Source of the DNA: Candidatus Omnitrophota bacterium
Lineage (GTDB): Bacteria > Omnitrophota > Gorgyraeia > Gygaellales > Profunditerraquicolaceae
DNA length: 64,000 bases
Assembly: GCA_003598025.1 (NCBI GenBank)
Contig: QZKH01000002.1
Coordinates: forward strand, 74,133-138,132
Direction of reading: 5' to 3'
A model generated the notes under the pieces. That model saw nothing but the letters and a program-made list of their open reading frames with translations. It was not told where the DNA came from and made no database searches. How positions within the stretch are numbered: the stretch's first letter is position 1; the number at the start of each line of letters is the position of its first letter. Shown piece by piece: positions 759 to 13,583 of the stretch. Both the position numbers and the translations under genes were made by a program.

Positions 759-1511
759 ATGCAGATGCAAAAAGAAGTCCATCTGACCGGTAAAGATTTA
801 ACACAAATGGTCCAGCTTAGGCCTGAAGATGTGGGAAAATATGCGATTGTGCCCGGGCCAAAAGACAGGCTCGATGTACTCATGAAAAAAATTGAGAGCC
901 CGATAAAGAATTTCTCATTTATGGAATATACCATGTATACCGGGACTTACCAGGGGATAAAAATTACCGGGATCAACGGCGGAAGGTTTTCAACGGATAC
1001 TGCAATTACTTCCGAAGTCATGTGCAATGCCGGAATAAAAAACATTATCAGGATCGGCACCTGCGGTGCACTGGATGAAAATATAAGAGTCGGCGATCTT
1101 TTCATCGTTGACGAAGTGATCCGGGGAGACGGCGTTACGCCGTATTATGTTGATAAAGATTTTAAGACGCAGGCTAATAAAGAGATAAGCGATGTTGTAT
1201 ACCATATTGCTAAGAGCAAAGGGCTTAATGTGCACCGCGGTACTGCCTGGACAACAGATGCGCTTTTACGCGAGACAAGGGAGATAGTCGAAGCAAAACG
1301 CAAGGAGGGCGCGCGTGCCGTAGATATGGTCTCTTCAACACTTTTAACGATCGCCCAGGTACACAATGTTAAAGCAGGTTCAATTCTGGCAGTAAGCGAC
1401 AATGTTATAACAGGTGAGATGGGCTTTATGAATCCTTTGTATTACATGGCAGAGACAAATCTTATTAATATTGCTTTGGAGGCCGTAAAAGAGCTTGAAG
1501 CCGCTTCTTAA
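759..1511 (+). CDS. Purine/uridine nucleoside phosphorylase family 1 (PNP_UDP_1) enzyme; candidate 5'-methylthioadenosine / 5'-deoxyadenosine phosphorylase
   Basis: 250 aa with the IRIGTCGAL nucleoside phosphorylase motif (cf. DeoD RVGSCGA). Sits directly upstream of an MtnA-family isomerase gene. Confidence 0.7.
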   Translation: MQMQKEVHLTGKDLTQMVQLRPEDVGKYAIVPGPKDRLDVLMKKIESPIKNFSFMEYTMYTGTYQGIKITGINGGRFSTDTAITSEVMCNAGIKNIIRIGTCGALDENIRVGDLFIVDEVIRGDGVTPYYVDKDFKTQANKEISDVVYHIAKSKGLNVHRGTAWTTDALLRETREIVEAKRKEGARAVDMVSSTLLTIAQVHNVKAGSILAVSDNVITGEMGFMNPLYYMAETNLINIALEAVKELEAAS

Positions 1512-1544
1512 TCAAGGAGGGACGGTTCTTAGATTAAAGCAGAA

Positions 1545-2507
1545 GTGTCCCTAATAAAAAGGATATGGCACATGAAATATTCACCACTATTTTGGCCAAT
1601 CAGATTGCAGGGTAATAAAATAATTGTTTTGGATGAAACCCTGCTTCCGCACAAGCTGAACTTTATTACCGTCAGGGATTATAAAGACTCATGCCGCGTA
1701 ATCAAACAGATGAAAACCCGCGCAATAGGCCAGGTCTTGTTAGTTTTCTATACCTTCTTGCTTATCCTCAAGCAAAATAACGCCAAGAAAAACACGTTGC
1801 CATTACTCAAGAAGATAGCTAATGCCTTAAATTCAACACGGCCTACACTTTCATTCAAATATATTACCGATATGGTCTTAAGCTGGGCCCAGGCAGATGG
1901 CAAACTCGAGAAAAAAATATTAAGCTTCCTGGAGATGCTTAAAAACATGCGTATAAGGCAAGCTAAAGACTTAAGTAAATTGATTAAGAATAATGACGCA
2001 ATACTTACCCATTGTAATATCAGCGGGCTCTTAAGCCTTGCAGCGGATTTTTCTAGAAAAGAAAAGAAAAAGATCCGTTTTTATGTTACTGAAACCCGGC
2101 CATACTTACAGGGTTCGCGCCTGACTGCCTGGGAATTAAAGAACTCCGGTTTTGATGTTACGGTAATAGCCGACAATATGGTTGCCCAGGTAATGAAAGA
2201 AGGAAAAATATCAAAAGTTGTCGTCGGTGCAGACCATTTAGCGCGAAACGGAGATATCGCAAATAAAATCGGGACTTACCAGATAGCGTTGCTTGCCAAG
2301 CACTTTAAAATACCTTTTTATGCGGTTTGCCCTCCGGCATCTAACGCCAAGGCAGGGAGCGATATAAAGATTGAAATAAGGCCCGAAGATGAATTACTGG
2401 TTTTTAACGGGAAGAAAATCGCTCCTGAAGGCGTAAACGGTTATTATCCGGCATTTGATATTACGCCCGATAAATTGATCACTAGGCATATTTACATGGG
2501 GATTTAA
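1545..2507 (+). CDS. mtnA: eIF-2B alpha/beta/delta-like family isomerase (MtnA-like methylthioribose-1-phosphate / 5-deoxyribose-1-phosphate isomerase)
   Basis: GADHLARNGDIANKIGTYQIALLAKHFKIPFYAVCP closely matches the MtnA/eIF2B signature GADRIAANGDTANKIGTY...PFYVAAP. The start is ambiguous: GTG at 1545 or ATG at 1572. Confidence 0.75.
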   Translation: MSLIKRIWHMKYSPLFWPIRLQGNKIIVLDETLLPHKLNFITVRDYKDSCRVIKQMKTRAIGQVLLVFYTFLLILKQNNAKKNTLPLLKKIANALNSTRPTLSFKYITDMVLSWAQADGKLEKKILSFLEMLKNMRIRQAKDLSKLIKNNDAILTHCNISGLLSLAADFSRKEKKKIRFYVTETRPYLQGSRLTAWELKNSGFDVTVIADNMVAQVMKEGKISKVVVGADHLARNGDIANKIGTYQIALLAKHFKIPFYAVCPPASNAKAGSDIKIEIRPEDELLVFNGKKIAPEGVNGYYPAFDITPDKLITRHIYMGI

Positions 2508-2508
2508 T

Positions 2509-3504
2509 ATGAGTGAAATAGATTTAGCCAAAGAGCAGATAATCAAAACAGGGAAAAGATTATATGAAGCCGGGCTTGCGGTTGCAAAGTCAGGGAATTT
2601 GAGCATAAAGATAGACCCTAAAACTATCCTTATAACAGCTACTTCAACGGCTTTGGGTCAGCTGAGCCCGGAAGATATTGTTTCGGTAGAATTAGATAGC
2701 CTTAAGTGCAGCGATAGAAATAAACCCAGTTCTGAACTCCCCTTGCATAGCCTCATCTATAAGAATTCCGCAGCTTGCGTAGTATTACATGCGCACCCGC
2801 CGTTAATTAACGGTTATTTTGCGGTAAATGATAATCTTGAGGCAATGACTTTTGAAACCAGGTTTTATTTAGGTAATGTCCCGGTCATAAAACAGGATAC
2901 CCCCACCGTTACTAACCCCGCACCCGTAATCGAGGCGCTGAAAAATAGCAATATAGTTGTCTTAAAAAACCACGGTGTGGTGTCTATTGCTGATAATTTT
3001 AAGGATGCACTTGCTTTAGTCGAGGCCCTTGAAGAAGCAATAAAATCAGCAGTGGTTGCCAGGCTGTTCAGCAAAGGCAACTTAAGCAATGCCGAAGAGG
3101 TCATTAAAGAAAGATTATCTTCTGATAAGGTATATCCTATGTTTTCAAAAGAGCATATACAGGCAATAGTCGATTTGGTCAATGATGACGATTTTATTGC
3201 CCAAAAGGGCAAGGAGCTTGATTTGACTGTAAACCTTGCAATAAAGCTTAACGAAACAAATCAGGCGTATAAATTTAATTTTGATAAAGGAAAGATAATC
3301 AGGCTGGACTGTGATGCGGATGCTCCTTTTGTAATTTCAGCTCCTGCGGCAGTCTGGGAACAGGTATTTTTAGGCAAGCTCGATTCATTTGTAGCTGTTA
3401 CGCAGGGGAAGATGAAATTGGAAGGCCAATTGGGCCAGCTTTCAAAATGGTATGTGCCCTTTAGCCGGCTCTTCGAAATATTTAAGCAGGTGAAATTTAA
3501 ATGA
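2509..3504 (+). CDS. Class II aldolase/adducin-domain protein fused to a C-terminal SCP2 (sterol carrier protein-2) domain; candidate MTRu-1-P / 5-deoxyribulose-1-P aldolase or dehydratase
   Basis: The N-terminal ~200 aa have the class II aldolase fold (HSLIYKNSAACVVLHAHPP, HGVVSIA). The C-terminal ~110 aa look SCP2-like (GKMKLEGQLGQL). Start overlaps the mtnA-like stop (TAATATG). Confidence 0.6.
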   Translation: MSEIDLAKEQIIKTGKRLYEAGLAVAKSGNLSIKIDPKTILITATSTALGQLSPEDIVSVELDSLKCSDRNKPSSELPLHSLIYKNSAACVVLHAHPPLINGYFAVNDNLEAMTFETRFYLGNVPVIKQDTPTVTNPAPVIEALKNSNIVVLKNHGVVSIADNFKDALALVEALEEAIKSAVVARLFSKGNLSNAEEVIKERLSSDKVYPMFSKEHIQAIVDLVNDDDFIAQKGKELDLTVNLAIKLNETNQAYKFNFDKGKIIRLDCDADAPFVISAPAAVWEQVFLGKLDSFVAVTQGKMKLEGQLGQLSKWYVPFSRLFEIFKQVKFK

Positions 3505-4982
3505 ATACTAAATTATTAATAAACGGCCAGCTTATCGAGACGAAGCAAAAGGAAAGAATCCTGAACCCTTCAACAGGCAGGGTTATTGAAGAAGTTTCTC
3601 TTGCTTCAAAGGCTGAACTGGAGAATGCCCTTGAGTCAGCGCGCATTGCTTTTGACCGTGGCCAGTGGCCAAGGCTGGGGTATGATGAAAGAAGGGAATT
3701 CATCCTAAAGATTAAGCAGGGTATTTTGGATAATGCAGCAGAGTTGGCAAAGATAGAGACGCTTAACACCGGCAAGCCGATAAAAGAAACAACATTTATG
3801 GATATCCCGTCTTCGGCTAAGAGCTTTGAGTATATGGCGGATAATTTTGAGAAGTTCCTGAGTGAAGAGAAAATATCTATACAGCAAGAGGCAGAGTGCA
3901 GGCTTATGCGTTCGGCCCGCGGCGTAGCCGTATTGATAATCCCATGGAATTATCCTTTGTTAATCGCCTCCTGGAAACTCGCCTCTGCGCTGTGCGCAGG
4001 TAACACCGTGATTTTAAAACCTTCAAGCCTGACACCTTTAAGTGTTTTAGAATTAGCCAGGATCATACATGATATAGGCTTTCCAAAAGGAGCGGTAAAT
4101 ATTATAAACGCGCCAGGCGCCGAAGCCGGCCAGCTGCTTTGCGCAAGCAAGTCAGTTGATATGGTATCATTTACCGGTAGTAACGAGGTCGGCCGGCAGA
4201 TAATCAATTATACCTCCACTAATGTCAAGAAACTGATAATGGAGTTAGGAGGTAAATCTGCCAGCATTATTATGGATGATGTGGACCTTGATGTTGCAGT
4301 AAACAGCAATCTATGTTCGATATTTCTGAATCAGGGCCAGATGTGCACGGCGATGTCACGCATACTCGTTCATGAAAAAATTTACGATAAGTTTGTTGAA
4401 ACCTTTGTCAGAAAAACCAGGTCAATAAAACTAGGGCAGGGAGAAGATTTTCAGACTCAAATGGGGCCGTTGATCTCGATTTCACAGATAAAGAAAATCA
4501 TTACTTATATAGATAAAGCAAAAAAAGAAGGGGCACACGTTTGTTGCGGAGGCAGGGCGCCGGAAGACCCTTCCTTAAAAAATGGGTTTTATTTTGAACC
4601 GACCGTTATTACTAATGTAAATGCGCACATGGAGGTATTTAAAGAAGAGGTCTTTGGGCCGGTTGTCTGTATTATGAAATTCTCTTCCATAGCTGAAGCG
4701 GTTGAAATAGCTAATAACAGTGATTTTGCTTTGGCAGCGTCTATTTGGACCAATAATAAGGAAGTTTCCGATGAGATAGCAAATAAGATAAACGCCGGCA
4801 TTATCTGGATAAATACTTACGGTATGTTTTACAATCAGGCTCCTTACGGCGGTTTTAAGCAGAGCGGTTTCGGTAAAGAGCTTGGCCGGGAAGGTTTTCT
4901 TGAATATACCGGGCTTAAGAATGTCATAGTTGACCGGAACCCGCAAGGCAAGCCTCTGGTAAACTACTGGTATGGTTTTTGA
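3501..4982 (+). CDS. NAD(P)-dependent aldehyde dehydrogenase
   Basis: 493 aa. Carries the ALDH glutamate motif (LIMELGGKSA) and the catalytic cysteine context (FLNQGQMCTAMSR). The ATGA overlap with the upstream gene suggests translational coupling. Confidence 0.85.
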   Translation: MNTKLLINGQLIETKQKERILNPSTGRVIEEVSLASKAELENALESARIAFDRGQWPRLGYDERREFILKIKQGILDNAAELAKIETLNTGKPIKETTFMDIPSSAKSFEYMADNFEKFLSEEKISIQQEAECRLMRSARGVAVLIIPWNYPLLIASWKLASALCAGNTVILKPSSLTPLSVLELARIIHDIGFPKGAVNIINAPGAEAGQLLCASKSVDMVSFTGSNEVGRQIINYTSTNVKKLIMELGGKSASIIMDDVDLDVAVNSNLCSIFLNQGQMCTAMSRILVHEKIYDKFVETFVRKTRSIKLGQGEDFQTQMGPLISISQIKKIITYIDKAKKEGAHVCCGGRAPEDPSLKNGFYFEPTVITNVNAHMEVFKEEVFGPVVCIMKFSSIAEAVEIANNSDFALAASIWTNNKEVSDEIANKINAGIIWINTYGMFYNQAPYGGFKQSGFGKELGREGFLEYTGLKNVIVDRNPQGKPLVNYWYGF

Positions 4983-5227
4983 TGAAGCTTAAACTGAATT
5001 TATACCCGATAGCATCGGACTTAGAGGGTAAAATAGATGAAATCCTAAATAAAGCAGTTGAGAACCGTGCTAAGCTTATCGAAATAGCTTATGGCAAGGC
5101 GTCAGAGGATATTAAAAAAAGGATACTGAATTTTCTAAACCGTAAAGATAAGCGTATTCTTTACCACCGTCTTGAAAAATCAAAAGAGGGGTGGGGAAGG
5201 ATATACATTCATTTTAGGTGGAAATAA
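4979..5227 (+). CDS. Small Smr-like domain protein (hypothetical)
   Basis: 82 aa. KLNLYP...IEIAYGKAS weakly resembles the Smr LDLHG...IIHGKG core. Overlaps neighbours at both ends. Confidence 0.3.
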   Translation: MMKLKLNLYPIASDLEGKIDEILNKAVENRAKLIEIAYGKASEDIKKRILNFLNRKDKRILYHRLEKSKEGWGRIYIHFRWK

Positions 5228-5649
5228 TTAACAAGGAGGCGGATGTGGGTAATAATTATTCCGGGCAAGAGAGGCGTAAGTTTAAAAGAGTTAAGATAAA
5301 CCTGGTAGTAGTTTATCATCCTGACAGGCCTTTGGACGTGGTGGTCATGCAGGGGTCTAAAGAGGAAAGGGCTACTATGCTTGATATAAGCCAGGGCGGT
5401 ATGTCAATCCTGGCAAAGACAAATATCCCCATTTCAACTAATGTATGGATAAAATTTACGCTTATGAGTTCGGACAAAGACCATGCCGATTTCTATGGCA
5501 ATATGGAAGTGAAAGGGCAGGTGCGTTACGGCATAGCTGAGCCCGGCGGTCGATACAGGCTGGGTATAAGCTTTTTGGGTTTGAACGAAAAAGACAGTAT
5601 AAACATCTCCAGCTTTGTAGAATCGTTAGAAAAAGGCAAAAAGAGTTAA
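5218..5649 (+). CDS. PilZ-domain protein (putative c-di-GMP receptor)
   Basis: RxxxR (RRKFKRVKI) and D/NxSxxG (DISQGGMSI) PilZ motifs. Start ambiguous: GTG at 5218, or GTG at 5245 which sits 4 nt after an AAGGAGG. Confidence 0.6.
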   Translation: MEIINKEADVGNNYSGQERRKFKRVKINLVVVYHPDRPLDVVVMQGSKEERATMLDISQGGMSILAKTNIPISTNVWIKFTLMSSDKDHADFYGNMEVKGQVRYGIAEPGGRYRLGISFLGLNEKDSINISSFVESLEKGKKS

Positions 5650-7167
5650 ATGGATATTATTAAAACACTGCAGGAGCGTATAAACACAGATGCCGATAAA
5701 CCGGCTATAATTTTTCGAGGCGGCCAGATATCTTTTAAGGAATTAATAACCAAGGTATATTCTTTAGCAGACAGCCTCGCAAAAATCGGCGTTAAGAATT
5801 CAGATAAAGTAGCTATATACCTGCCTAATTGCCCTGAATATTTCATAAGCTACCTGGCGGCATGGTGTATGGGGTTGGCGGTTGTCCCCTTAGACTATAT
5901 GCTTACCGAAGATGAATTGAATTCGTGTATTGGGCATTCAGAGGCAAAAGTGCTTATCGCCAGGCAGAAACCGGTGATATCACTAAATAATATAAAATCC
6001 AGAAACACAAAGCTTACCCATATTATTGTATCTAATCCTTCTGATAGCGGATTCCTTAAATTCGATGATATGTGTGTTACCTATAAGGCAGGCCCGAAAA
6101 AAGCTTATTCAGAAAAGGATTATGCGATTATTTTTTACACATCAGGCACTACCGGTAAACCCAAGGGTGTCCTGATAAATTACCGTCAATTAGGCGCTCC
6201 CGTACAATCAATGAGTTTTTTTACGGATTTAAACGACAAGGATATTGCCTTGTGCGCATTGCCCTTTTCTCACCTGGGAGGCCTGATTTATATCTTAAAC
6301 TGTGTTTCTTTTGGCATTACGGTTGTGCTTATGGAGCGGTTTAGCCCGTTAGAGTTCCTCAAAAATATAGAGGCCTTTAAGGTGAGCTGCTTCTGGATAG
6401 TGCCCTCGATGTATTATGCCTTCCTTCAGTTAAAAGAATTTGAAAATATCGATCTTTCTTCGCTCAGATGGATAGTTACTTTCGGGGCCTCAAATTCCCC
6501 CGAGGCATTAAGAAGGTTCCATAAATATTGCCCGAGTGCTTATATTTTAAACGGCTGGGGCCTGACCGAAACGAACGCCCCAACTACGGTTCTGCCTATG
6601 GGCTCAAATAAAATCGAGAGTGTAGGCCGTCCTGCCCCGTGGATCGAAGTGAAGATATTTTCCGCAGAGGGTTTGGATACGCCGGACAAAGAATTGCCAA
6701 GAGGCGAAATAGGCGAAATTGTTGTCAAAAGCTGGGTGGTTACTGACGGATATTATAAAGATGAGAACCTTACGCTTCAGACGATCCGTAACGGATGGTT
6801 CCATACCGGAGACCTGGGCAGGTTTGATGACGATGGGCACCTATACATTGTCGGCAGAAAAAAAGAAATGATAAAAGTCGGGGGAGAAATAGTTTTTGAG
6901 CCCGAGGTTGAATCAGTGATTTACAGCCATCCGGATGTAAGCGAAGCAGCTGTTATAGGAGTAAGCGATAAACTAAGAGGCGAAGTACCCAAGGCCTTCA
7001 TTGTCCTTAAAGAAGGCAGGCAGCTTTCAGAGGAGGACATAAGATTTTTCTTAAGACAGCATCTTGCGCATTTTAAAATCCCGCATTATTTCGAATATAA
7101 GGAAAGTCTCCCTAAGAACCGGACAGGCAAGATTGATAAAGAAGCGCTCAGGACAGGTTCTTATTGA
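5650..7167 (+). CDS. AMP-dependent synthetase/ligase (acyl-CoA synthetase family)
   Basis: AMP-binding motif YTSGTTGKPKGV, GWGLTET, hinge GDLGRFDDDGHLYIVGRKKEMIKVGGEIV, and the terminal PKNRTGKIDK lysine. Confidence 0.85.
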   Translation: MDIIKTLQERINTDADKPAIIFRGGQISFKELITKVYSLADSLAKIGVKNSDKVAIYLPNCPEYFISYLAAWCMGLAVVPLDYMLTEDELNSCIGHSEAKVLIARQKPVISLNNIKSRNTKLTHIIVSNPSDSGFLKFDDMCVTYKAGPKKAYSEKDYAIIFYTSGTTGKPKGVLINYRQLGAPVQSMSFFTDLNDKDIALCALPFSHLGGLIYILNCVSFGITVVLMERFSPLEFLKNIEAFKVSCFWIVPSMYYAFLQLKEFENIDLSSLRWIVTFGASNSPEALRRFHKYCPSAYILNGWGLTETNAPTTVLPMGSNKIESVGRPAPWIEVKIFSAEGLDTPDKELPRGEIGEIVVKSWVVTDGYYKDENLTLQTIRNGWFHTGDLGRFDDDGHLYIVGRKKEMIKVGGEIVFEPEVESVIYSHPDVSEAAVIGVSDKLRGEVPKAFIVLKEGRQLSEEDIRFFLRQHLAHFKIPHYFEYKESLPKNRTGKIDKEALRTGSY

Positions 7168-7173
7168 ATCCGG

Positions 7174-8199
7174 ATGAACATAAATAATTTCAACCTTGAA
7201 GAGTTGGAGAAAGTGTTGCGCGAATGTGGTCAGCCTGTTTTTCGCGCCCGGCAGATTTTTGCCTGGGTACATAAGAGGAAAGTCTTTGATTTCGGAAAAA
7301 TGTCGGATATGCCGTCAAGCTTAAGAGAAAAACTCAAAAATAAATATTCTATTCAGGATTTAAGCATAAGGAACATAACACGGTCAAGAGACGGAACGCA
7401 AAAATACCTTTTTTCTTTGAATGATGCCAATCTTATTGAAGCGGTGAATATCCCTGCGGCAGGCAGGGTTACGGGATGCGTTTCTACGCAAGCCGGCTGC
7501 AGGTTTGCTTGTAAATTTTGCGCAAGCGGAATTCAGGGATTTGTCAGGAACCTGGAATGTTCTGAGATAATTGAGCAGATTCTTGTCCTTGACAGAGATG
7601 CTTCCGGCGGCCTCACTAACCTCGTTTTTATGGGCACAGGCGAGCCGTTAGATAATTACGATAATGTTATCAAGGCGGCAAGGATAATAAATTCGCAATA
7701 CAGCATTAATCTTGGCGCAAGGAAGATAACCATTTCAACTTCCGGTGTCATTGCCGGCATAGAGCGTCTCAGTAACGAAGGGCTGCAAATCGAACTATCG
7801 GTTTCTTTGCATGCTGCAGATGATAGGACAAGGTCAAGCCTGATGCCCATAAACAAGGTTTATCCTCTAAGTGATCTGATTAAAGCCTGCAGAAAATATA
7901 CCGAGAAAACTAACCGGCAGATAACTTTCGAATACATCCTTATTAAGGGCATTAATTCTACATTGCAGGATGCGCTTAATTTAGTTAAAGTATTAAAAGG
8001 GTTATCCACAATCAAGGTTAATCTTATAGTATCTAATATCGTAGAAGAATCCGGACTTGAGCCGGCGGGCCTGAAAGATGCCGCTGCTTTTAAAGGGTGC
8101 CTTATTAAACACGGCATAAACGTGACGCTGCGTAAGCCGCGCGGACAGGATATTGATGCTGCCTGTGGGCAATTGAGGTTGAGATATGGGGAAGGATAG
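7174..8199 (+). CDS. rlmN: 23S rRNA (adenine2503-C2)-methyltransferase RlmN (radical SAM)
   Basis: CKFCASG radical-SAM CxxxCxxC motif, RlmN-type N-terminus (LRECGQPVFRARQIFAWV) and the conserved C-terminal Cys region. Confidence 0.85.
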   Translation: MNINNFNLEELEKVLRECGQPVFRARQIFAWVHKRKVFDFGKMSDMPSSLREKLKNKYSIQDLSIRNITRSRDGTQKYLFSLNDANLIEAVNIPAAGRVTGCVSTQAGCRFACKFCASGIQGFVRNLECSEIIEQILVLDRDASGGLTNLVFMGTGEPLDNYDNVIKAARIINSQYSINLGARKITISTSGVIAGIERLSNEGLQIELSVSLHAADDRTRSSLMPINKVYPLSDLIKACRKYTEKTNRQITFEYILIKGINSTLQDALNLVKVLKGLSTIKVNLIVSNIVEESGLEPAGLKDAAAFKGCLIKHGINVTLRKPRGQDIDAACGQLRLRYGEG

Positions 8200-8866
8200 T
8201 TCACTGTTCATAGTTCATAGTTCATGGATTAAGGCGGCAAATTTTATCTTGGCCTTATTTTTATTCTTTGGGATCATCGGGTGTCAGAAGAGGGATATAA
8301 AGAATATTGATTCTAAGGGCACGAATATCATTTGTTTCGGGGATAGCATAACCTTTGGTTACGGCGTTGACCCGGATAAAAGCTATCCTGCGGTTTTAGC
8401 CGGCATAACGCAGTGGCAGGTCATTAACGCAGGGGTAGATGGCGATACTTCAACCGATGGCTTAAACAGGATTAACAAAGATGTTTTAGAAAAAGACCCC
8501 TTACTTGTTGTTATTGAGTTCGGCGGTAATGATTTTCTCAAGAAAATACCAAAAACGCAAACCGCTGAAAACGTAAATAAAATGATTGATCATATACATG
8601 GACGCGGCTCAATGGTAGCGTTGTTAGATATAAGTACAGGCATTTTACTTAGCGATTACCATAAGCTTTTGAAAGACATAGCATCAGAAAGAGGCGCTAT
8701 TTTTATCCCAAAGATTTTAACAGGAATAATCACTAACCCCAGTATGAAGAGCGATTTCCTGCATCCTAATGAAAATGGTTACGCTGTTATCGCCCAACGT
8801 GTTTACCGCACAATTATCCCTTACCTGAATAGGAATTTTACTTTAAAGAGCATCGCCAGCAAATAA
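8186..8866 (+). CDS. SGNH/GDSL-family lipase or acylhydrolase (TesA-like), probable lipoprotein
   Basis: GDSITFGYG block I and GGNDF block. A lipobox-like IIGC follows a hydrophobic stretch. The N-terminal codons overlap a heptad repeat, so the true start may lie downstream of 8186. Confidence 0.7.
   Translation: MGKDSSLFIVHSSWIKAANFILALFLFFGIIGCQKRDIKNIDSKGTNIICFGDSITFGYGVDPDKSYPAVLAGITQWQVINAGVDGDTSTDGLNRINKDVLEKDPLLVVIEFGGNDFLKKIPKTQTAENVNKMIDHIHGRGSMVALLDISTGILLSDYHKLLKDIASERGAIFIPKILTGIITNPSMKSDFLHPNENGYAVIAQRVYRTIIPYLNRNFTLKSIASK
8199..8226. repeat. Heptad array (GTTCACT GTTCATA GTTCATA GTTCATG) at the rlmN / GDSL-lipase junction
   Basis: Four units overlapping the rlmN stop and the annotated 5' end of the lipase ORF. 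Confidence 0.75.
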
Positions 8867-8929: not shown

Positions 8930-9409
8930 GTGATGAGAAATATCCTTCACACGCCAATCCCTGAGAAAAGATATCGGGCCAGGGCTTTTGCCCTGGTAGA
9001 GACGCTTCTTGCCACGGCGATAATGGTGTTTGGGCTTTGCGCGATACTGATAACCTACATATCCTGCCTTTTACTTATTACTACCGCTAAGAACATTAAT
9101 ATAGCTACTAATGCTACGTTAAGCCTGATGGAGGGGATACGCAGCAGCGATTTTACACAGATATCCGCTAATTATAACGGATTAAATTTTGTTTTAAACG
9201 ATATACCTTTAAGCAGGGGAGTAGTTTATGTTGATGATACAAATGCCGAGCTTTTACAGGTGGATATAAGCGTGTGTTGGCAGCAGGGTAACAGGGTAAT
9301 CGGAGAAGATGCAAATTTAAACGGTATGCTTGATCCGGGAGAAGATGTAAATGGTAACGGGATCATTGATTCCACGGTAAAGGCGACAACTTTAATAGCC
9401 AACAGGTGA
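8930..9409 (+). CDS. Pseudopilin/minor pilin-like protein with an atypical prepilin N-terminus
   Basis: RARAFALVETLLATAIMVFGL resembles the prepilin cleavage/methylation segment (G-F-T-L-I-E), but has Ala rather than Gly at -1. An extended -10 (TGATATAAT) lies at 8897-8905. Confidence 0.45.
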   Translation: MMRNILHTPIPEKRYRARAFALVETLLATAIMVFGLCAILITYISCLLLITTAKNINIATNATLSLMEGIRSSDFTQISANYNGLNFVLNDIPLSRGVVYVDDTNAELLQVDISVCWQQGNRVIGEDANLNGMLDPGEDVNGNGIIDSTVKATTLIANR

Positions 9410-9410
9410 T

Positions 9411-9932
9411 ATGAAAAGGGGCCTTACACTAATAGAAATACTTGTTGCTTCAAGTATCCTGATATTATTAATACTTGCTGTGTTTCAGGTAATGGAAGCA
9501 GGAAGGAGCGCAGTATTTACCGGGGATTTAACAGTGCAATTGCGCCAGGAGATAATCAGAACTTTTATGAGGATGGAAAGGGAGTTAAAAGAGGCACGCC
9601 CCGCGCTGGTGAGTTTAACAAGCGGCAATAGTAGTTCGACTATCACATTCAGTGTCCCTCAGGATATTAATGGCGACGGGACGGTTTTGGATGATTTTGG
9701 CGCTATTGAATGGTCTGCCGTTATTACATATGCTTTAAACGGTTCTAATCAAATAATCAGGACTTCATCCGGTGTTACTAATGTGCTTGCAAACGATATT
9801 GTCAGTTTACAGTTCAGCAGGCCGCTTTCCCCTGTTAATATCTTACAGATTGATATGACGGCGCGCAAGATTTCTTCTTCTGGCAGGCAGTTACAGGACG
9901 CCGGGCAAATGGTAATAGAAATGAGGAATTGA
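9411..9932 (+). CDS. Prepilin-type N-terminal cleavage/methylation domain protein (type IV pilus minor pilin / T2SS pseudopilin)
   Basis: MKRGLTLIEILVASSILILL is a canonical class III signal peptide (G/LTLIE). Confidence 0.75.
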   Translation: MKRGLTLIEILVASSILILLILAVFQVMEAGRSAVFTGDLTVQLRQEIIRTFMRMERELKEARPALVSLTSGNSSSTITFSVPQDINGDGTVLDDFGAIEWSAVITYALNGSNQIIRTSSGVTNVLANDIVSLQFSRPLSPVNILQIDMTARKISSSGRQLQDAGQMVIEMRN

Positions 9933-9935
9933 TAA

Positions 9936-11243
9936 ATGCAATATTTCTTCCCAAGGTTAGCAAATAAAAAGGGAGTAGCTTTAATTACTACATTCTTTGC
10001 AATTACCGTGCTGCTTATTTTTTGCGGGCTTTTTGTTATGGTAAGTATAAGCCAAAATATGGCCTCGGATAGGTTCAGAAGGAGAACGCGCGCTTTTTAC
10101 CTGGCTGAATCGGGTTTAGACAGGGCAATTTTTTGGTTAAGGACGCAACCTTCTCCGCCCGTAGGAGACAAGATTGATCCGTGGGGGGGCGCGCAGAATT
10201 TAGGCGAAGGCAGCTATACAGTTTCTATCTTTGACCTGGGCATGGTGGGAGCCAATTCCAGTATCCGAAGGTACAGGGTAAGGTCTTCAGGGTCTTTTGG
10301 GAATATAACCCGCACTTTGACTAATTATGTACAGGTTGATAACTACGCCCGGTATCTCTGGTTTACGGATCGGGAGGTTTATGGAGGAGTAAATGTCTGG
10401 TTTTGGACGCAGGACAGGCTAAACGGCCCAACGCATACCAATTCTCACTTCAATATTTATGGCAATCCTGTTTTTGAAAGCGAGGTCCGCTCCGTAGACG
10501 ACTATATAAGGTTTTATAATAACGGTATTAATGTTAATTTGCAGCAGACTTCCAATTCACCTTATGATGAACCAGTTTTTCTGGAAGGAGTTGACTTCGG
10601 AGTGCAGCCAACAACAATGCCTAACCAGGCTTTAAGCCTGCGCTCAGCGGCAAATAGCAGCGAAGGCATTTATTTAAGCGGCAATACAAAGGTGGTACTA
10701 AACAGCGACGGGACAATGAGTGTCACTAATTCCAAGAAAAAGTGGAAAGACAAAGATATGCCATTACCGGCAAACGGCGCCCTCTTTGTCAATAACGGTT
10801 CTTTGCATGTTTCCGGAACGCTTAATGGAAGGCTTACGGTCGGTTCCAGCAGTGATGTGGTCATCCCGGATAGCATTGTATACGCCGATGACCCAAAGCT
10901 TAACCCCAATTCCGATGATGTCCTCGGGGTTATTTCCGAAAGAGATATAGTTGTAAGTTATGACGCGCCTCACGATCTTGAGATAGACGCTTGCATGATG
11001 TCCCTGGGTACATCTTTTATGATGGAGGATTGGTGGGTAGGCCCGGCTAAAGGCACATTATCTGTTTATGGCGGTATAATTCAGGATGAAAGGGGTCCCG
11101 TCGGGACTTTTAACAGCCTGGCCGGGACAAAAGTAAGCGGGTACTCAAAAGATTATTCTTATGACCCGAGATTGCTGAGCAACCCGCCGCCTTACATGCC
11201 AACAACCGGCGATTATATAACTTTATCCTGGCAGGAGAATTAA
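9936..11243 (+). CDS. PilX-N-terminal-domain pilus assembly protein (large minor pilin-like)
   Basis: N-terminus KKGVALITTFFAITVLLIF matches PilX_N-type hydrophobic segments. 435 aa and Ser/Asn/Gly-rich. Adjacent to the pseudopilin genes. Confidence 0.5.
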   Translation: MQYFFPRLANKKGVALITTFFAITVLLIFCGLFVMVSISQNMASDRFRRRTRAFYLAESGLDRAIFWLRTQPSPPVGDKIDPWGGAQNLGEGSYTVSIFDLGMVGANSSIRRYRVRSSGSFGNITRTLTNYVQVDNYARYLWFTDREVYGGVNVWFWTQDRLNGPTHTNSHFNIYGNPVFESEVRSVDDYIRFYNNGINVNLQQTSNSPYDEPVFLEGVDFGVQPTTMPNQALSLRSAANSSEGIYLSGNTKVVLNSDGTMSVTNSKKKWKDKDMPLPANGALFVNNGSLHVSGTLNGRLTVGSSSDVVIPDSIVYADDPKLNPNSDDVLGVISERDIVVSYDAPHDLEIDACMMSLGTSFMMEDWWVGPAKGTLSVYGGIIQDERGPVGTFNSLAGTKVSGYSKDYSYDPRLLSNPPPYMPTTGDYITLSWQEN

Positions 11244-11742: not shown

Positions 11743-11825
11743 TGCCGAGAGAGGGAGTTGAACCCTCACGAGGTTGCCCTCACCAGTTTTTGAGACTGGC
11801 GTGTATGCCATTCCACCACCTCGGC
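11743..11825 (-). tRNA. tRNA-Leu (anticodon CAA)
   Basis: Manual fold of the reverse complement: acceptor GCCGAGG/TCTCGGC, D-stem GTG/CAC, anticodon stem CCAGT/ACTGG with loop CTCAAAA (CAA), long variable arm TGAGGGCAACCTCGT, T-arm GAGGG-TTCAACT-CCCTC, discriminator A. 83 nt. CCA not encoded. Confidence 0.8.
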
Positions 11826-11947: not shown

Positions 11948-12265
11948 GACCGTTTTACGCTCGTTTAGTGCCACTTCAAATTTTCCTTGTCGGAAAATAG
12001 TTATGTGGTGGCGCCGCACTCGCTGCCTCACTTGTCGCTCGGCTACGCTCGTTGCGGCATCCACCAATTTTTTCCTTACCGGAAAATTAAAATCCAAGGC
12101 ACTGAACTCGCTACGGTCCTTGTCGGACCGTTTTACGCTCGTTTAGTGCCACTTCAAATTTTCCTTGTCGGAAAATTAAAATCCAAGGCACTGAACTCAC
12201 TACGGTCCTTGTCGGACCGTTTTACGCTCGTTTAGTGCCACTTCAAATTTTCCTTGTCGGAAAAT
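11948..12265. repeat. Tandem duplication of an 89-bp unit: full copies at 12081-12169 and 12170-12258, a partial copy at 11948-11999, and a short partial copy at 12259-12265
   Basis: The two full units differ by one substitution (G/A at 12110 vs 12199). The partial copy GGACCGTTTTACGCTCGTTTAGTGCCACTTCAAATTTTCCTTGTCGGAAAAT is identical to the unit core. Confidence 0.85.
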
Positions 12266-12271
12266 TTGAAG

Positions 12272-12274
<3 letters not shown>
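12238..12274. other. Perfect 14-bp-stem hairpin (CCACTTCAAATTTT-9 nt-AAAATTTGAAGTGG) at the junction of the repeat and the tRNA-Ala 3' end
   Basis: Visible inverted repeat. The 3' arm overlaps the last 3 nt of tRNA-Ala on the opposite strand. Possible transcript-end or processing structure. Confidence 0.5.
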
Positions 12275-12344
<70 letters not shown>

Positions 12345-12508
12345 ATTATTATATTTTGCGTTCGTCCCGAGCTACCTTCTCTTGTCTTATGTACCGAGGA
12401 GCAGCCCCATATTTAAAATTTAAAGCTCAGTATACACTCCCAGTCCCGACGCTCATTTGCATTCGGTCGGGATGCCGACTTCACGTATTTTGTGAACGTC
12501 GGCACTGA

Positions 12509-12527
12509 GCTACAGCCCCATATTGGC
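12509..12527 (-). other. Duplicated 5' fragment of tRNA-Ala (GGGGCTGTAGCTCAG + TGCC) followed by hairpins; possible 5' leader of a tRNA-Ala precursor or a recombination remnant
   Basis: The first 15 nt are identical to the 5' end of the intact tRNA-Ala 165 bp away. Two stem-loops follow at about 12446-12508. A minus-strand sigma70-like promoter lies at 12545-12573. Confidence 0.5.
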
Positions 12528-12594
12528 TTAAATTTAGTGTATTAAATATAACATTCGGCTATAGCATTGTCAATACCTTCTGGCTGCCAAACAA

Positions 12595-12622
12595 GTTCAT
12601 GGTTGATAGTTCAAGGTTCATG
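12595..12622. repeat. Heptad array (GTTCATN)x4, minus-strand orientation of the TATGAAC family
   Basis: gttcatg gttgata gttcaag gttcatg. Lies 21 nt upstream, in minus orientation, of a minus-strand -35 (TTGACA, plus coordinates 12568-12573). Confidence 0.75.
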
Positions 12623-12656
12623 GACTATGTTAGCGCTTATAGCTATTAAGATTATC

Positions 12657-12691
12657 TATGAACTATGAACCATGAACAATGAACTATAAAC
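12657..12691. repeat. Heptad array (TATGAAC-like)x5 immediately upstream of the nfo -35 box
   Basis: tatgaac tatgaac catgaac aatgaac tataaac. Ends 10 nt before the -35 TTGACG (12702-12707). Confidence 0.8.
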
Positions 12692-12701
12692 CAAGTAGCC
12701 C

Positions 12702-12730
12702 TTGACGCTCCTTACCCCCTGGGGTATAAT
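12702..12730 (+). promoter_or_regulatory. sigma70-type promoter of nfo: -35 TTGACG (12702-12707), 17-nt spacer, -10 TATAAT (12725-12730); near-leaderless
   Basis: Consensus hexamers with a 17-nt spacer. The nfo ATG at 12741 is only 10 nt past the -10, so the mRNA is leaderless or has a very short leader. The TTG the ORF track uses as start is actually the -35 box. Confidence 0.7.
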
Positions 12731-12740
12731 GGGTGAAATT

Positions 12741-13583
12741 ATGATATTAGGGGTCCATGTTTCTGCAGCAGGCAATATTTATGATTCGCTTGAGCGTGCC
12801 TATGGGTTAGGCTGTAATACTATGCAGATATTTTCGCGCAATCCTCAAAGATGGCGCGATAATTTTTTAGGGGAGCACGATTTCGATGAATTTCGTAAGG
12901 CTAAGCAAAAATTTAAAATAAACCCCGTCTTTATCCATATACCTTATTTGATAAACCTGGCTTCTCCTGAGCCGGGGCTTTACCGGGCTTCAATCCGCGC
13001 ATATATTGAAGATATTGTTGAAGCAGATAAACTAGGCGCTGATTTTATCGTAACGCATATGGGCAGCCATAAGAAAACATCTGAAAGCCTCGGGATTAAA
13101 AGATTGACGGCTGCCCTGAATAAAATTGCCTTAGCAACAAAAGATTCCAAAGTCGGGATCCTGCTTGAAAATACATCCGGTTCCGGAAGCTGGCTGGGTT
13201 ATGATTTTACGCACCACAAGCGGGTTTTTGATAATTTGAAGGACAGGCAGCGTTTCGGCATATGCCTTGATACCGCCCATGCTTTTTCTGCGGGATATGA
13301 TATATCGAACAAGCCGGGGCTGGATGCGATGCTTGGGGAAATAGACAGGCTGGTTGGTTTAGGTTTGATCAGGTTGATACATCTGAATGACTCAGCTTCA
13401 AGACTTGGGCAGCACTTTGATAAGCACCAGCATATAGGGAAAGGCTATATCGGCATCCCGGGTATGAAAAATATCATTAACCATAAAGGGCTTAAAGATA
13501 AGCCCTTTATATTAGAAACCCCCAAAGAGTATCAATCTTCCGATATTGATAACTTGGAAACAGTGAGGAAACTGAGAAAATGA
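12741..13583 (+). CDS. nfo: Endonuclease IV (AP endonuclease family 2)
   Basis: MILGVHVSAAGN aligns with the E. coli Nfo N-terminus MKYIGAHVSAAGG. HLNDS metal-ligand motif. I moved the start to 12741 from the ORF-track 12702 on the basis of this alignment. Confidence 0.85.
   Translation: MILGVHVSAAGNIYDSLERAYGLGCNTMQIFSRNPQRWRDNFLGEHDFDEFRKAKQKFKINPVFIHIPYLINLASPEPGLYRASIRAYIEDIVEADKLGADFIVTHMGSHKKTSESLGIKRLTAALNKIALATKDSKVGILLENTSGSGSWLGYDFTHHKRVFDNLKDRQRFGICLDTAHAFSAGYDISNKPGLDAMLGEIDRLVGLGLIRLIHLNDSASRLGQHFDKHQHIGKGYIGIPGMKNIINHKGLKDKPFILETPKEYQSSDIDNLETVRKLRK

Follow-up and report, generated by a model that had tools for sequence, protein, structure and literature searches.

What do the genes at positions 759-8199 of this stretch accomplish together? 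The window, meaning the whole 64,000-nucleotide stretch from a Candidatus Omnitrophota bacterium (contig QZKH01000002.1, positions 74,133 to 138,132), carries near its start a nucleoside phosphorylase, an MtnA/DrdI-like isomerase, a class II aldolase fused to an SCP2 (sterol-carrier-protein-2 fold) domain and an aldehyde dehydrogenase (ALDH), followed by an AMP-forming ligase and RlmN. A sequence-only reading of the window had proposed a variant of the dihydroxyacetone phosphate (DHAP) shunt, salvaging 5'-deoxyadenosine or 5'-methylthioadenosine (MTA) and ending in oxidation and capture of the acid as a thioester. Our answer, to which we give an even chance, is that the set turns the 5'-deoxyadenosine waste left by radical S-adenosylmethionine (SAM) enzymes, perhaps also MTA, into adenine, DHAP and an acid, by a pathway of the DHAP-shunt type with oxidation and probable activation by the ligase.

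The enzyme families, their conserved association and, at the level of sequence, their catalytic residues are established. The route that we infer, in its substrate, its direction and its fifth step, would run as follows. The DeoD-like phosphorylase would convert a purine 5'-deoxynucleoside and phosphate to the free base and a sugar-1-phosphate, the likeliest substrate being 5'-deoxyadenosine and possibly MTA. The isomerase would yield the ketose-1-phosphate, which the metal-dependent class II aldolase would split into DHAP and acetaldehyde or 2-methylthioacetaldehyde. The ALDH would oxidise this aldehyde to acetate or methylthioacetate, and the ligase would probably convert the acid to a thioester, either of CoA or of the acyl carrier protein (ACP) encoded in the same gene block. 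5'-Deoxyadenosine, possibly with MTA, was ranked as the likeliest substrate because both of the radical-SAM enzymes that recur beside the module produce 5'-deoxyadenosine.

All eight open reading frames (ORFs) were located on the forward strand at the positions of the sequence-only reading when the ORFs and translations were checked, and Pfam and NCBIfam models bore out its order of families: phosphorylase, isomerase, class II aldolase, ALDH, Smr, PilZ, ligase and RlmN. Coupling by overlapping stops and starts was found only at the aldolase/ALDH junction (4 nt); the spacing elsewhere is 0-60 nt, the isomerase and aldolase genes being 1 nt apart and the phosphorylase and isomerase genes 33-60 nt apart. 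Nearly every called gene in the window lies on the forward strand with very short intergenic gaps, so tight packing is not particular to this operon and says little, and operon boundaries are not readable from spacing. The GC content is uniform over the operon region. Searches of window positions 1-13 kb and of four distant loci against Rfam returned no riboswitch or leader that names a ligand. Scans for promoters and terminators were uninformative, terminator-like sites being no more frequent than expected from shuffled sequence.

The phosphorylase (759-1511; PNP_UDP_1, PF01048, 115.8 bits) is the predicted entry enzyme. It had been assigned to a "PNP/MtnP" family, of which the PNP_UDP_1 part stands and the MtnP part does not: the score on the MTAP model TIGR01694 was 21.6 bits against a cutoff of 274.85, and the protein is of the hexameric DeoD/Udp type. 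NCBIfam matched it best to uridine phosphorylase (109.6 bits) and to DeoD (94 bits), in each case well short of the cutoff; the neighbours in the PDB were likewise Udp- and DeoD-type enzymes. Scores on the HpnG model (52.8 bits, cutoff 187) and on the futalosine hydrolase model (20.9 bits) were low. In an alignment with E. coli DeoD and Udp, Arg24, Arg87 and Asp204 (the purine-type residue) are retained, Ser90 is kept in the form of Thr, and the protein has no counterpart of the insertion specific to Udp. Relative to E. coli DeoD, Arg43 is replaced by Met or Glu, Glu181 by Val and Arg217 by Leu; we take Glu181 of the E. coli enzyme to be a ligand of the ribose 2'- and 3'-hydroxyls. The N-terminal His aligns with His8 of Udp, presumably a contact of the 5'-hydroxyl. 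The change of Glu181 to Val or Ile, the loss of Arg43 and the retention of Asp204 are common to the orthologues of five distant loci (L085, L086, L087, L090 and L093), which marks the phosphorylase as a distinct NP-I subfamily. Judged by these residues, the enzyme probably acts on purines with an altered sugar site.

The isomerase (1545-2507; IF-2B/MtnA-like, PF01008, 201.9 bits) likelier starts at the ATG at 1572, since this codon is preceded by an AAAGGA ribosome-binding site. Its assignment to the MtnA family was upheld by the subfamily model TIGR00524, which it passes (214.3 bits, cutoff 185.85), while the equivalog models NF004326 (252.8 bits, cutoff 271) and TIGR00512 (234.3 bits, cutoff 279) were narrowly missed. 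On the ribose-1,5-bisphosphate isomerase model TIGR00511 it scores 115.5 bits against 314.1. The best match in the PDB was MtnA of T. maritima (1t9k, 9.7e-50), with which the THCN and GAD motifs align; by reference to B. subtilis MtnA we take these motifs to hold the catalytic Cys and Asp. The protein falls within the MtnA/DrdI branch and is predicted to convert an aldose-1-phosphate to a ketose-1-phosphate.

The third gene (2509-3504; Aldolase_II 115 bits, SCP2 28.3 bits) had been described as a class II aldolase-fold enzyme. This is true of its N-terminal domain (2509-3078), for which DrdA (6btd/6btg) was the best PDB match both by sequence and by Foldseek comparison of folds, and which is predicted to cleave a ketose-1-phosphate to DHAP and an aldehyde; the fused C-terminal SCP2 domain (3121-3504) had been overlooked. 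The match to DrdA, together with the TIGR00524 result for the isomerase, bears out the comparison of the phosphorylase, isomerase and aldolase with the DHAP-shunt and Drd enzymes. An NCBI protein from a Candidatus Omnitrophota metagenome-assembled genome (MAG) matches the fusion protein at 100% identity, and the AlphaFold2 model of the fusion protein is confident (predicted local distance difference test score 92.4, predicted template modelling score 0.86). Among 34 aligned family members the equivalents of FucA G28, N29, E73, H92, H94 and H155 are invariant, and the positions of FucA Ser71 and Ser72 are Ser in most members and in the window protein. By this alignment the enzyme has the three His metal ligands and the catalytic Glu of class II aldolases. 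FucA Tyr113 is replaced by Phe, after which comes an invariant Glu116. Profile comparison of aldolase and dehydratase favoured the former: the MtnB models NF006672 (71.2 bits, cutoff 226) and TIGR03328 (64.5 bits, cutoff 137.05) were missed, and aldolase models scored higher (105.6 and 84 bits). The ribulose-1-phosphate aldolase model NF053831 was also missed (65.2 bits, cutoff 300).

The C-terminal domain has the alpha/beta fold of SCP2, is as well conserved as the catalytic domain and is attached exactly where FucA has its C-terminal tail. From FucA mutant studies we take this tail (Phe206, Tyr209) to shape the aldehyde pocket; because the SCP2 domain replaces it, the domain may lengthen or close off the active site on its aldehyde side. 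No SCP2-fused aldolase was found described in the literature, our coverage of which is incomplete. In L003 a stand-alone SCP2 protein homologous to the SCP2 domain of the aldolase (8001-8405; PF02036, 30.6 bits) lies between the isomerase and the aldolase, and L006 has one at the same position.

The ALDH (3501-4982; Aldedh, PF00171, 536 bits) is an NAD(P)+ enzyme of the non-acylating type by its motifs PWNYP (Asn), ELGGKS (Glu) and GQMCTA (Cys). Among solved structures it comes closest to generic enzymes of the ALDH1/2/9 type, and it reached no equivalog cutoff, so that these matches single out no substrate; it is predicted to oxidise the aldehyde product of the aldolase to the acid. The ligase (5650-7167; AMP-binding, PF00501, 278.9 bits; AMP-binding_C, PF13193, 81.3 bits) has both domains and all ANL motifs (TSGTTGKPKG, GWGLTE, TGDLG and PKNRTGKIDK). 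It scores 420.8 bits on NF004837 (cutoff 476), and its nearest structures, generic like those of the ALDH, are FadD5, 3ivr, and 4CL, luciferase and oxalyl-CoA synthetase types. The acid product is probably its substrate, to be activated to acyl-CoA or to acyl-ACP.

Conservation was first counted within the window's clade. Species-representative genomes, when scanned, yielded 168 relatives of the fusion protein, of which the best 80 loci (L001-L080) were used for counts; all 80 are MAGs of Omnitrophota type, although the record title reads uncultured Planctomycetales in 14 cases and only "bacterium" in 3. Junctions were counted from tblastn matches of the window proteins against these loci. The arrangement recurs in them at 55-85% amino-acid identity, far beyond chance. 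Phosphorylase and isomerase are adjacent in 57 of 58 loci, the phosphorylase being missing upstream in seven loci that have room for it, and isomerase and aldolase in 69 of 74. The aldolase is followed directly by the ALDH in 68 of 73, and the ALDH is never missing where room exists. The proposal that the ALDH would prove to be a conserved neighbour was thus borne out, also in two rearranged lineages. ALDH and ligase are adjacent in 35 of 50 loci; they lie more than 1.5 kb apart in 11, and in 11 more the ligase is absent despite room. The genes inserted between them are unrelated and encode a PlsC-type acyltransferase, PurU and an AsmA-like protein. RlmN (7174-8199; TIGR00048, 383.4 bits, cutoff 290), correctly named as the next gene, adjoins the ligase in 44 of 48 loci. 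The whole block of about 17 kb is collinear across the window's clade. Within this clade the isomerase-aldolase-ALDH link is therefore strong, while the ligase link is indistinguishable from inherited synteny.

The Smr-domain gene (4979-5227; PF01713, 28.6 bits) and the PilZ-domain gene (5218-5649; PF07238, 49.4 bits) had been described as interposed, and so they are: neither they nor the small ORF upstream had a tblastn match in any of the 80 loci. They are insertions and lie outside the conserved set.

Several loci depart from the common arrangement. The gene in the phosphorylase position of the seven loci was suspected to be MtnP and proved to encode a class IV aminotransferase. It stands 5' of the isomerase, in place of the phosphorylase, in an Omnitrophota subclade (L004, L008, L015, L020, L031 and L072), in which the downstream ligase is also missing wherever the locus extends beyond the ALDH. 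A pair consisting of a DeoC/LacD-family class I aldolase and a Zn-dependent alcohol dehydrogenase is inserted between aldolase and ALDH in L033 and L079, and after the ALDH in L067.

Beyond the window's clade, a full HMMER scan of representatives at 50% identity turned up roughly 30 proteins that share both domains of the fusion protein over the full length, at 31-44% identity. L085 and L086 belong to a second deep Omnitrophota clade (clade B), and there the order is PadR, ligase, phosphorylase, isomerase, a truncated isomerase paralogue (141-159 aa), aldolase-SCP2, ALDH and a B12-binding radical-SAM enzyme. These genes are followed by two small proteins, one weakly SRPBCC-like, an ApbA-type reductase and two ketosynthases; in L085 an ACP comes next, and the L086 stretch ends inside the second ketosynthase. 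The Ca. Desulfofervidus-like loci L087 and L088 have the order B12 radical-SAM enzyme, phosphorylase, isomerase, small paralogue, aldolase-SCP2 and ALDH, and a Syntrophaceae MAG (L090) has phosphorylase, isomerase, small paralogue and aldolase-SCP2. In the L087 and L090 clusters no ligase, ACP or ketosynthase was found. L093 has phosphorylase, aldolase-SCP2, an outer-membrane-like protein and RlmN; in L094 RlmN directly follows the aldolase-SCP2 gene; in L095 an AMP-ligase gene overlaps its stop; and L089 and L091 have the fusion gene alone. Orthologues of the ALDH are present in L085, L086 and L087. By sequence comparison, the conserved set, shared by Omnitrophota and certain relatives among the sulfate reducers, comprises phosphorylase, MtnA-like isomerase with or without the small paralogue, aldolase-SCP2 and ALDH.

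Outside the window's clade, the truncated isomerase paralogue always lies directly before the aldolase-SCP2 gene (L085 7583-8008, L086 7529-8008, L087 7568-8008, L090 8361-8879, L092 8528-9028). It consists of the C-terminal domain (141-172 aa) without the Cys-bearing N-terminal part, and is not present in the window.

By BLASTP, the ligases of clade B share 52-57% identity with the window's ligase family, against 42% for the aldolase, and that of L095 shares 34%. The expectation that the ligase would accompany the trio in related genomes was therefore borne out in part: orthologues lie upstream of the phosphorylase in clade B, but within the window's clade ligase and ALDH are often split. That the ligase and the B12 radical-SAM enzyme recur in two phyla and in several gene orders is better support for a shared function than is adjacency within the window's clade. 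Of the proposed capture of the aldehyde by an ALDH and a ligase, the ALDH has turned out to be a near-obligate partner and the ligase link to be real but weaker, while conversion of acetate to a CoA thioester is not obvious.

Two unrelated radical-SAM enzymes recur beside the module, RlmN and a BchE/HpnJ-like B12 enzyme, and both kinds generate 5'-deoxyadenosine by known chemistry. RlmN, an rRNA/tRNA methyltransferase, is a recurrent neighbour and not an enzyme of the pathway. The B12-binding enzyme, which the sequence-only reading had overlooked, belongs to the same conserved gene set. Gene content 5' of the operon was inferred from related loci; there, in the window's clade, this family lies about 7 kb upstream beside an ACP, a cyclase, an SRPBCC protein, an MFS transporter and an SDR. 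Its members score far under every equivalog cutoff, and by BLASTP the radical-SAM enzymes of clade B are 52-53% and that of L087 39% identical to it. If the B12 enzyme runs at high flux in an ACP-dependent lipid pathway, co-located salvage would be sensible, returning DHAP and a C2 unit.

The radical-SAM/ACP/SRPBCC block lies about 2-8 kb upstream of the aldolase in L001-L080, at 10665-17029 in L085 and at 10566-16999 in L086. Clade B adds to it the ApbA-type reductase and the two ketosynthases. It has the look of a gene set, uncharacterised so far, for an ACP-dependent lipid or polyketide.

A number of observations weigh against the salvage of 5'-deoxyadenosine with activation of the acid. 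The phosphorylase is no MTAP or MtnP by its profile scores, is without two canonical DeoD residues (Glu181, now Val or Ile, and Arg43), and, in the alignment with DeoD, Udp and its orthologues, has residues that mark a distinct subfamily and give no decisive signal for the 5' substituent. In L087 a canonical MTAP (11960-12745, reverse strand; TIGR01694, 277.4 bits, cutoff 274.85) is encoded 1.6 kb from the ALDH of the cluster, so the new phosphorylase may have another substrate. Acetaldehyde needs no SCP2 domain. The ligase is of the FadD/4CL/luciferase (fatty-acyl or aryl) type and not of the acetyl-CoA synthetase type, which makes acetate to acetyl-CoA not the obvious reaction. In the window's clade the ligase parts from the ALDH more often than from RlmN, and with about 17 kb of synteny its adjacency there is weak evidence when taken alone. 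The adjacency of RlmN in L093 and L094 may reflect ancestry shared with Omnitrophota and not independent linkage. Apart from this argument, it was observed that the Desulfofervidus-like organism of L087 carries both phosphorylase types.

Four other explanations were weighed. One keeps the four-gene core as the pathway and regards the ligase, like RlmN and the GDSL gene, as no more than a neighbour by synteny, whose housekeeping role in lipid metabolism has nothing to do with the pathway; we consider it unlikely, though it deserves to be taken seriously. It accounts for the ALDH/ligase junction being broken far more often than the ligase/RlmN junction, for the unrelated nature of the inserts, for the collinearity of the region across the window's clade and for the missing ligase in L087 and L090. 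It does not account for clade B, where ligases closer to the window's family than the aldolases are lie directly upstream of the phosphorylase, nor for the 34%-identical ligase that overlaps the aldolase stop in L095; inherited synteny can hardly account by itself for three differing arrangements with the same ligase partner. A reading of the aldolase-like protein as an MtnB-type methylthioribulose-1-phosphate dehydratase of classical methionine salvage can draw on its weak matches to NF006672 and TIGR03328 and on the invariant Glu116 after the Phe that replaces FucA Tyr113. We rejected it as scarcely credible: the model cutoffs were missed (64.5 bits against 137 for TIGR03328) with aldolase models scoring higher, the catalytic residues of the aldolase are invariant, including the equivalent of FucA Glu73, no MtnC-, MtnD-, MtnW- or MtnX-like gene was seen among the annotated neighbours in the window or the loci, and an ALDH requires an aldehyde, which only the aldolase reaction would supply.

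The two remaining explanations change the substrate and are kept alive by the SCP2 domain, the type of the ligase, the lost ribose ligand of the phosphorylase and the MTAP of L087. In the one, which seems to us improbable, the module serves ribose catabolism, taking a nucleoside through ribose-1-phosphate and ribulose-1-phosphate to DHAP and glycolaldehyde and then to glycolate, as a shortcut of the halophile pathway and a means of nucleoside scavenging by small-genome Omnitrophota. The phosphorylase is indeed DeoD/Udp-like and not MTAP-like, with its N-terminal His aligned to Udp His8, and the canonical MTAP beside the L087 cluster points the same way. Class II FucA-type aldolases split ribulose-1-phosphate into DHAP and glycolaldehyde (PMC9700705), and an ALDH after such an aldolase follows the classical aerobic logic of fucose and rhamnose use (PMC10986504). 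The isomerase belongs by its matches to the MtnA/DrdI branch, however, and no report of ribose-1-phosphate isomerase activity in that family was found in a literature search of incomplete coverage; the scores on NF053831 (65 against 300 bits) and on the ribose-1,5-bisphosphate isomerase model (115 against 314) are low; and the cluster holds no ribose-1-phosphate kinase or ribulose-1,5-bisphosphate (RuBP) phosphatase. On the exact scores of both models (65.2 and 115.5 bits against 300 and 314.1) and the missing kinase and phosphatase, membership in the pentose bisphosphate pathway was rejected. Ribose catabolism would also leave the recurrent radical-SAM neighbours, the ligase and the SCP2 domain unexplained. 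The other explanation, to which we likewise give a small chance, is biosynthetic trimming of a 5'-substituted 5'-deoxyadenosine, be it the adduct formed when a radical-SAM enzyme adenosylates a hydrophobic substrate or a compound with another 5'-X group. Adenine and carbons C1-C3 of the ribose (as DHAP) would be removed, and the remaining X-CH2-CHO would be oxidised and loaded by the ligase on CoA or ACP as a starter for the ketosynthases. By analogy with HpnH/HpnG in hopanoids and with the fluoroacetate and chloroethylmalonyl-CoA routes such trimming is conceivable, and NP-I enzymes that process 5'-adenosyl adducts exist (HpnG, MqnB). A lipid-binding SCP2 fold at the very place of the FucA tail that shapes the aldehyde pocket, a ligase of the fatty-acyl type, a non-canonical ribose site in the phosphorylase, B12 radical-SAM, ACP and SRPBCC proteins conserved in both Omnitrophota clades and two ketosynthases in clade B are all consistent with it. 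Against it stand the poor scores of the phosphorylase on the HpnG (52.8 against 187) and futalosine hydrolase (20.9) models and the clusters of L087 and L090, which are without ACP, ketosynthases and ligase; the SCP2 domain could also be purely structural, and we know of no B12-type radical-SAM enzyme that adenosylates its substrate. No fluorinase- or chlorinase-type gene was seen in any locus, the neighbourhoods covered being the annotated recurrent neighbour families and the Pfam-labelled genes of L085-L095. A slightly smaller chance still is given to the specific form in which the module is no waste disposal but a biosynthetic harvest of the C4'-C5' end of such a compound, the substituent being introduced by the B12 radical-SAM or another SAM-dependent enzyme and gripped by the SCP2 domain during the release of DHAP, and the oxidised product being loaded by the ligase on ACP as a starter for the ketosynthases. 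If true, this would be a previously unknown way to build an unusual lipid or polyketide in Omnitrophota.

Some further features of the neighbourhood were recorded. Genes for a CrcB fluoride channel and a DUF190 protein lie within 4-5 ORFs 5' of the phosphorylase, mostly directly adjacent to it, in 14 of the 53 loci with at least two upstream ORFs (L010, L014, L019, L021-L023, L034, L042, L060, L063, L065, L068, L073 and L074). Since the fluoroacetate pathway has the enzyme series of the module, their placement is curious, and it may be coincidental. At window positions 8930-11243, 3' of the GDSL gene, three successive ORFs have hydrophobic N-termini of the prepilin/pseudopilin type (e.g. MKRGLTLIEILVASS); L094 also has an N_methyl-domain gene 3' of RlmN. 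The sole sizeable non-coding gap near the operon contains, on the reverse strand, a tRNA gene scoring 55.5 bits and a short match to the tmRNA clan that stays below threshold (38.3 bits against a gathering score of 47), at 11743-11825 and 12269-12344; ORFs called over the gap are probably spurious.

Any organism that uses radical-SAM enzymes has to remove 5'-deoxyadenosine, and many uncultured anaerobes are, to our knowledge, not covered by the routes described so far (Pfs/MtnN, MTAP, the DHAP shunt, Drd and a deaminase). If the proposed salvage of 5'-deoxyadenosine is true, it would define the disposal of this compound for the candidate phylum Omnitrophota and some Desulfobacterota and add to the pathway an oxidative, carbon-conserving end in which the acid becomes a thioester. 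Three protein subfamilies would, moreover, gain functions open to testing: the DeoD-like phosphorylase with its altered ribose site, the SCP2-fused class II aldolase and the truncated MtnA paralogue. The recurrent link to B12 radical-SAM enzymes, ACP and ketosynthases may indicate an unknown lipid pathway.

The closest known systems are the DHAP shunt (MtnP or MtnN plus MtnK, MtnA, Ald2) and DrdK-DrdI-DrdA, which share the three-reaction logic, the isomerase and aldolase superfamilies and the clustering of genes (PMC6079011, PMC10986504); DrdA is a characterised 5-deoxyribulose-1-phosphate aldolase (PMC6079011). Entry there is by MTAP or by the nucleosidase MtnN with an MtnK or DrdK kinase, whereas here it would be by a divergent DeoD/Udp-type phosphorylase, and no kinase is present in the operon cluster. 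The aldolase here is SCP2-fused with Tyr113 changed to Phe, and a truncated isomerase paralogue (outside the window's clade) and the recurrent link to B12 radical-SAM enzymes are likewise peculiar to the present module. Its operon includes a dedicated ALDH and often a ligase, while the known versions reduce or excrete the aldehyde or leave it to general enzymes; E. coli forms acetate from 5-deoxyribose anaerobically through AdhE (PMC10986504).

The oxidative route had been thought to be undescribed. No DHAP shunt with a dedicated ALDH and ligase, and no formation of methylthioacetate, was found in the literature as far as our incomplete coverage goes, but an ALDH acts at the same step of the fluoroacetate pathway of Streptomyces cattleya and Nocardia brasiliensis (FlA, FlB), where a phosphorylase (FlB), an MtnA-type isomerase of 5-FDRP, a fuculose-type aldolase and an ALDH for fluoroacetaldehyde act in series to give a substituted acetate (PMC3999930). 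That pathway differs in that FlB is MTAP-like and the aldolase and ALDH genes are unclustered in the actinomycetes. [quoted passage not shown] It runs through ribose-1,5-bisphosphate and RuBP, needs a kinase and a phosphatase and reduces the aldehyde to ethylene glycol, whereas here the isomerase is of the MtnA type, the cluster has neither kinase nor phosphatase and the aldehyde is presumably oxidised. In the catabolism of fucose and rhamnose by E. coli (FucA or RhaD with AldA), a class II aldolase also releases DHAP and an aldehyde that an NAD+-dependent ALDH converts to the acid (PMC10986504); there free 6-deoxyhexoses enter through an isomerase and a kinase and the ALDH is encoded outside the operon, while here entry would be through a nucleoside phosphorylase.

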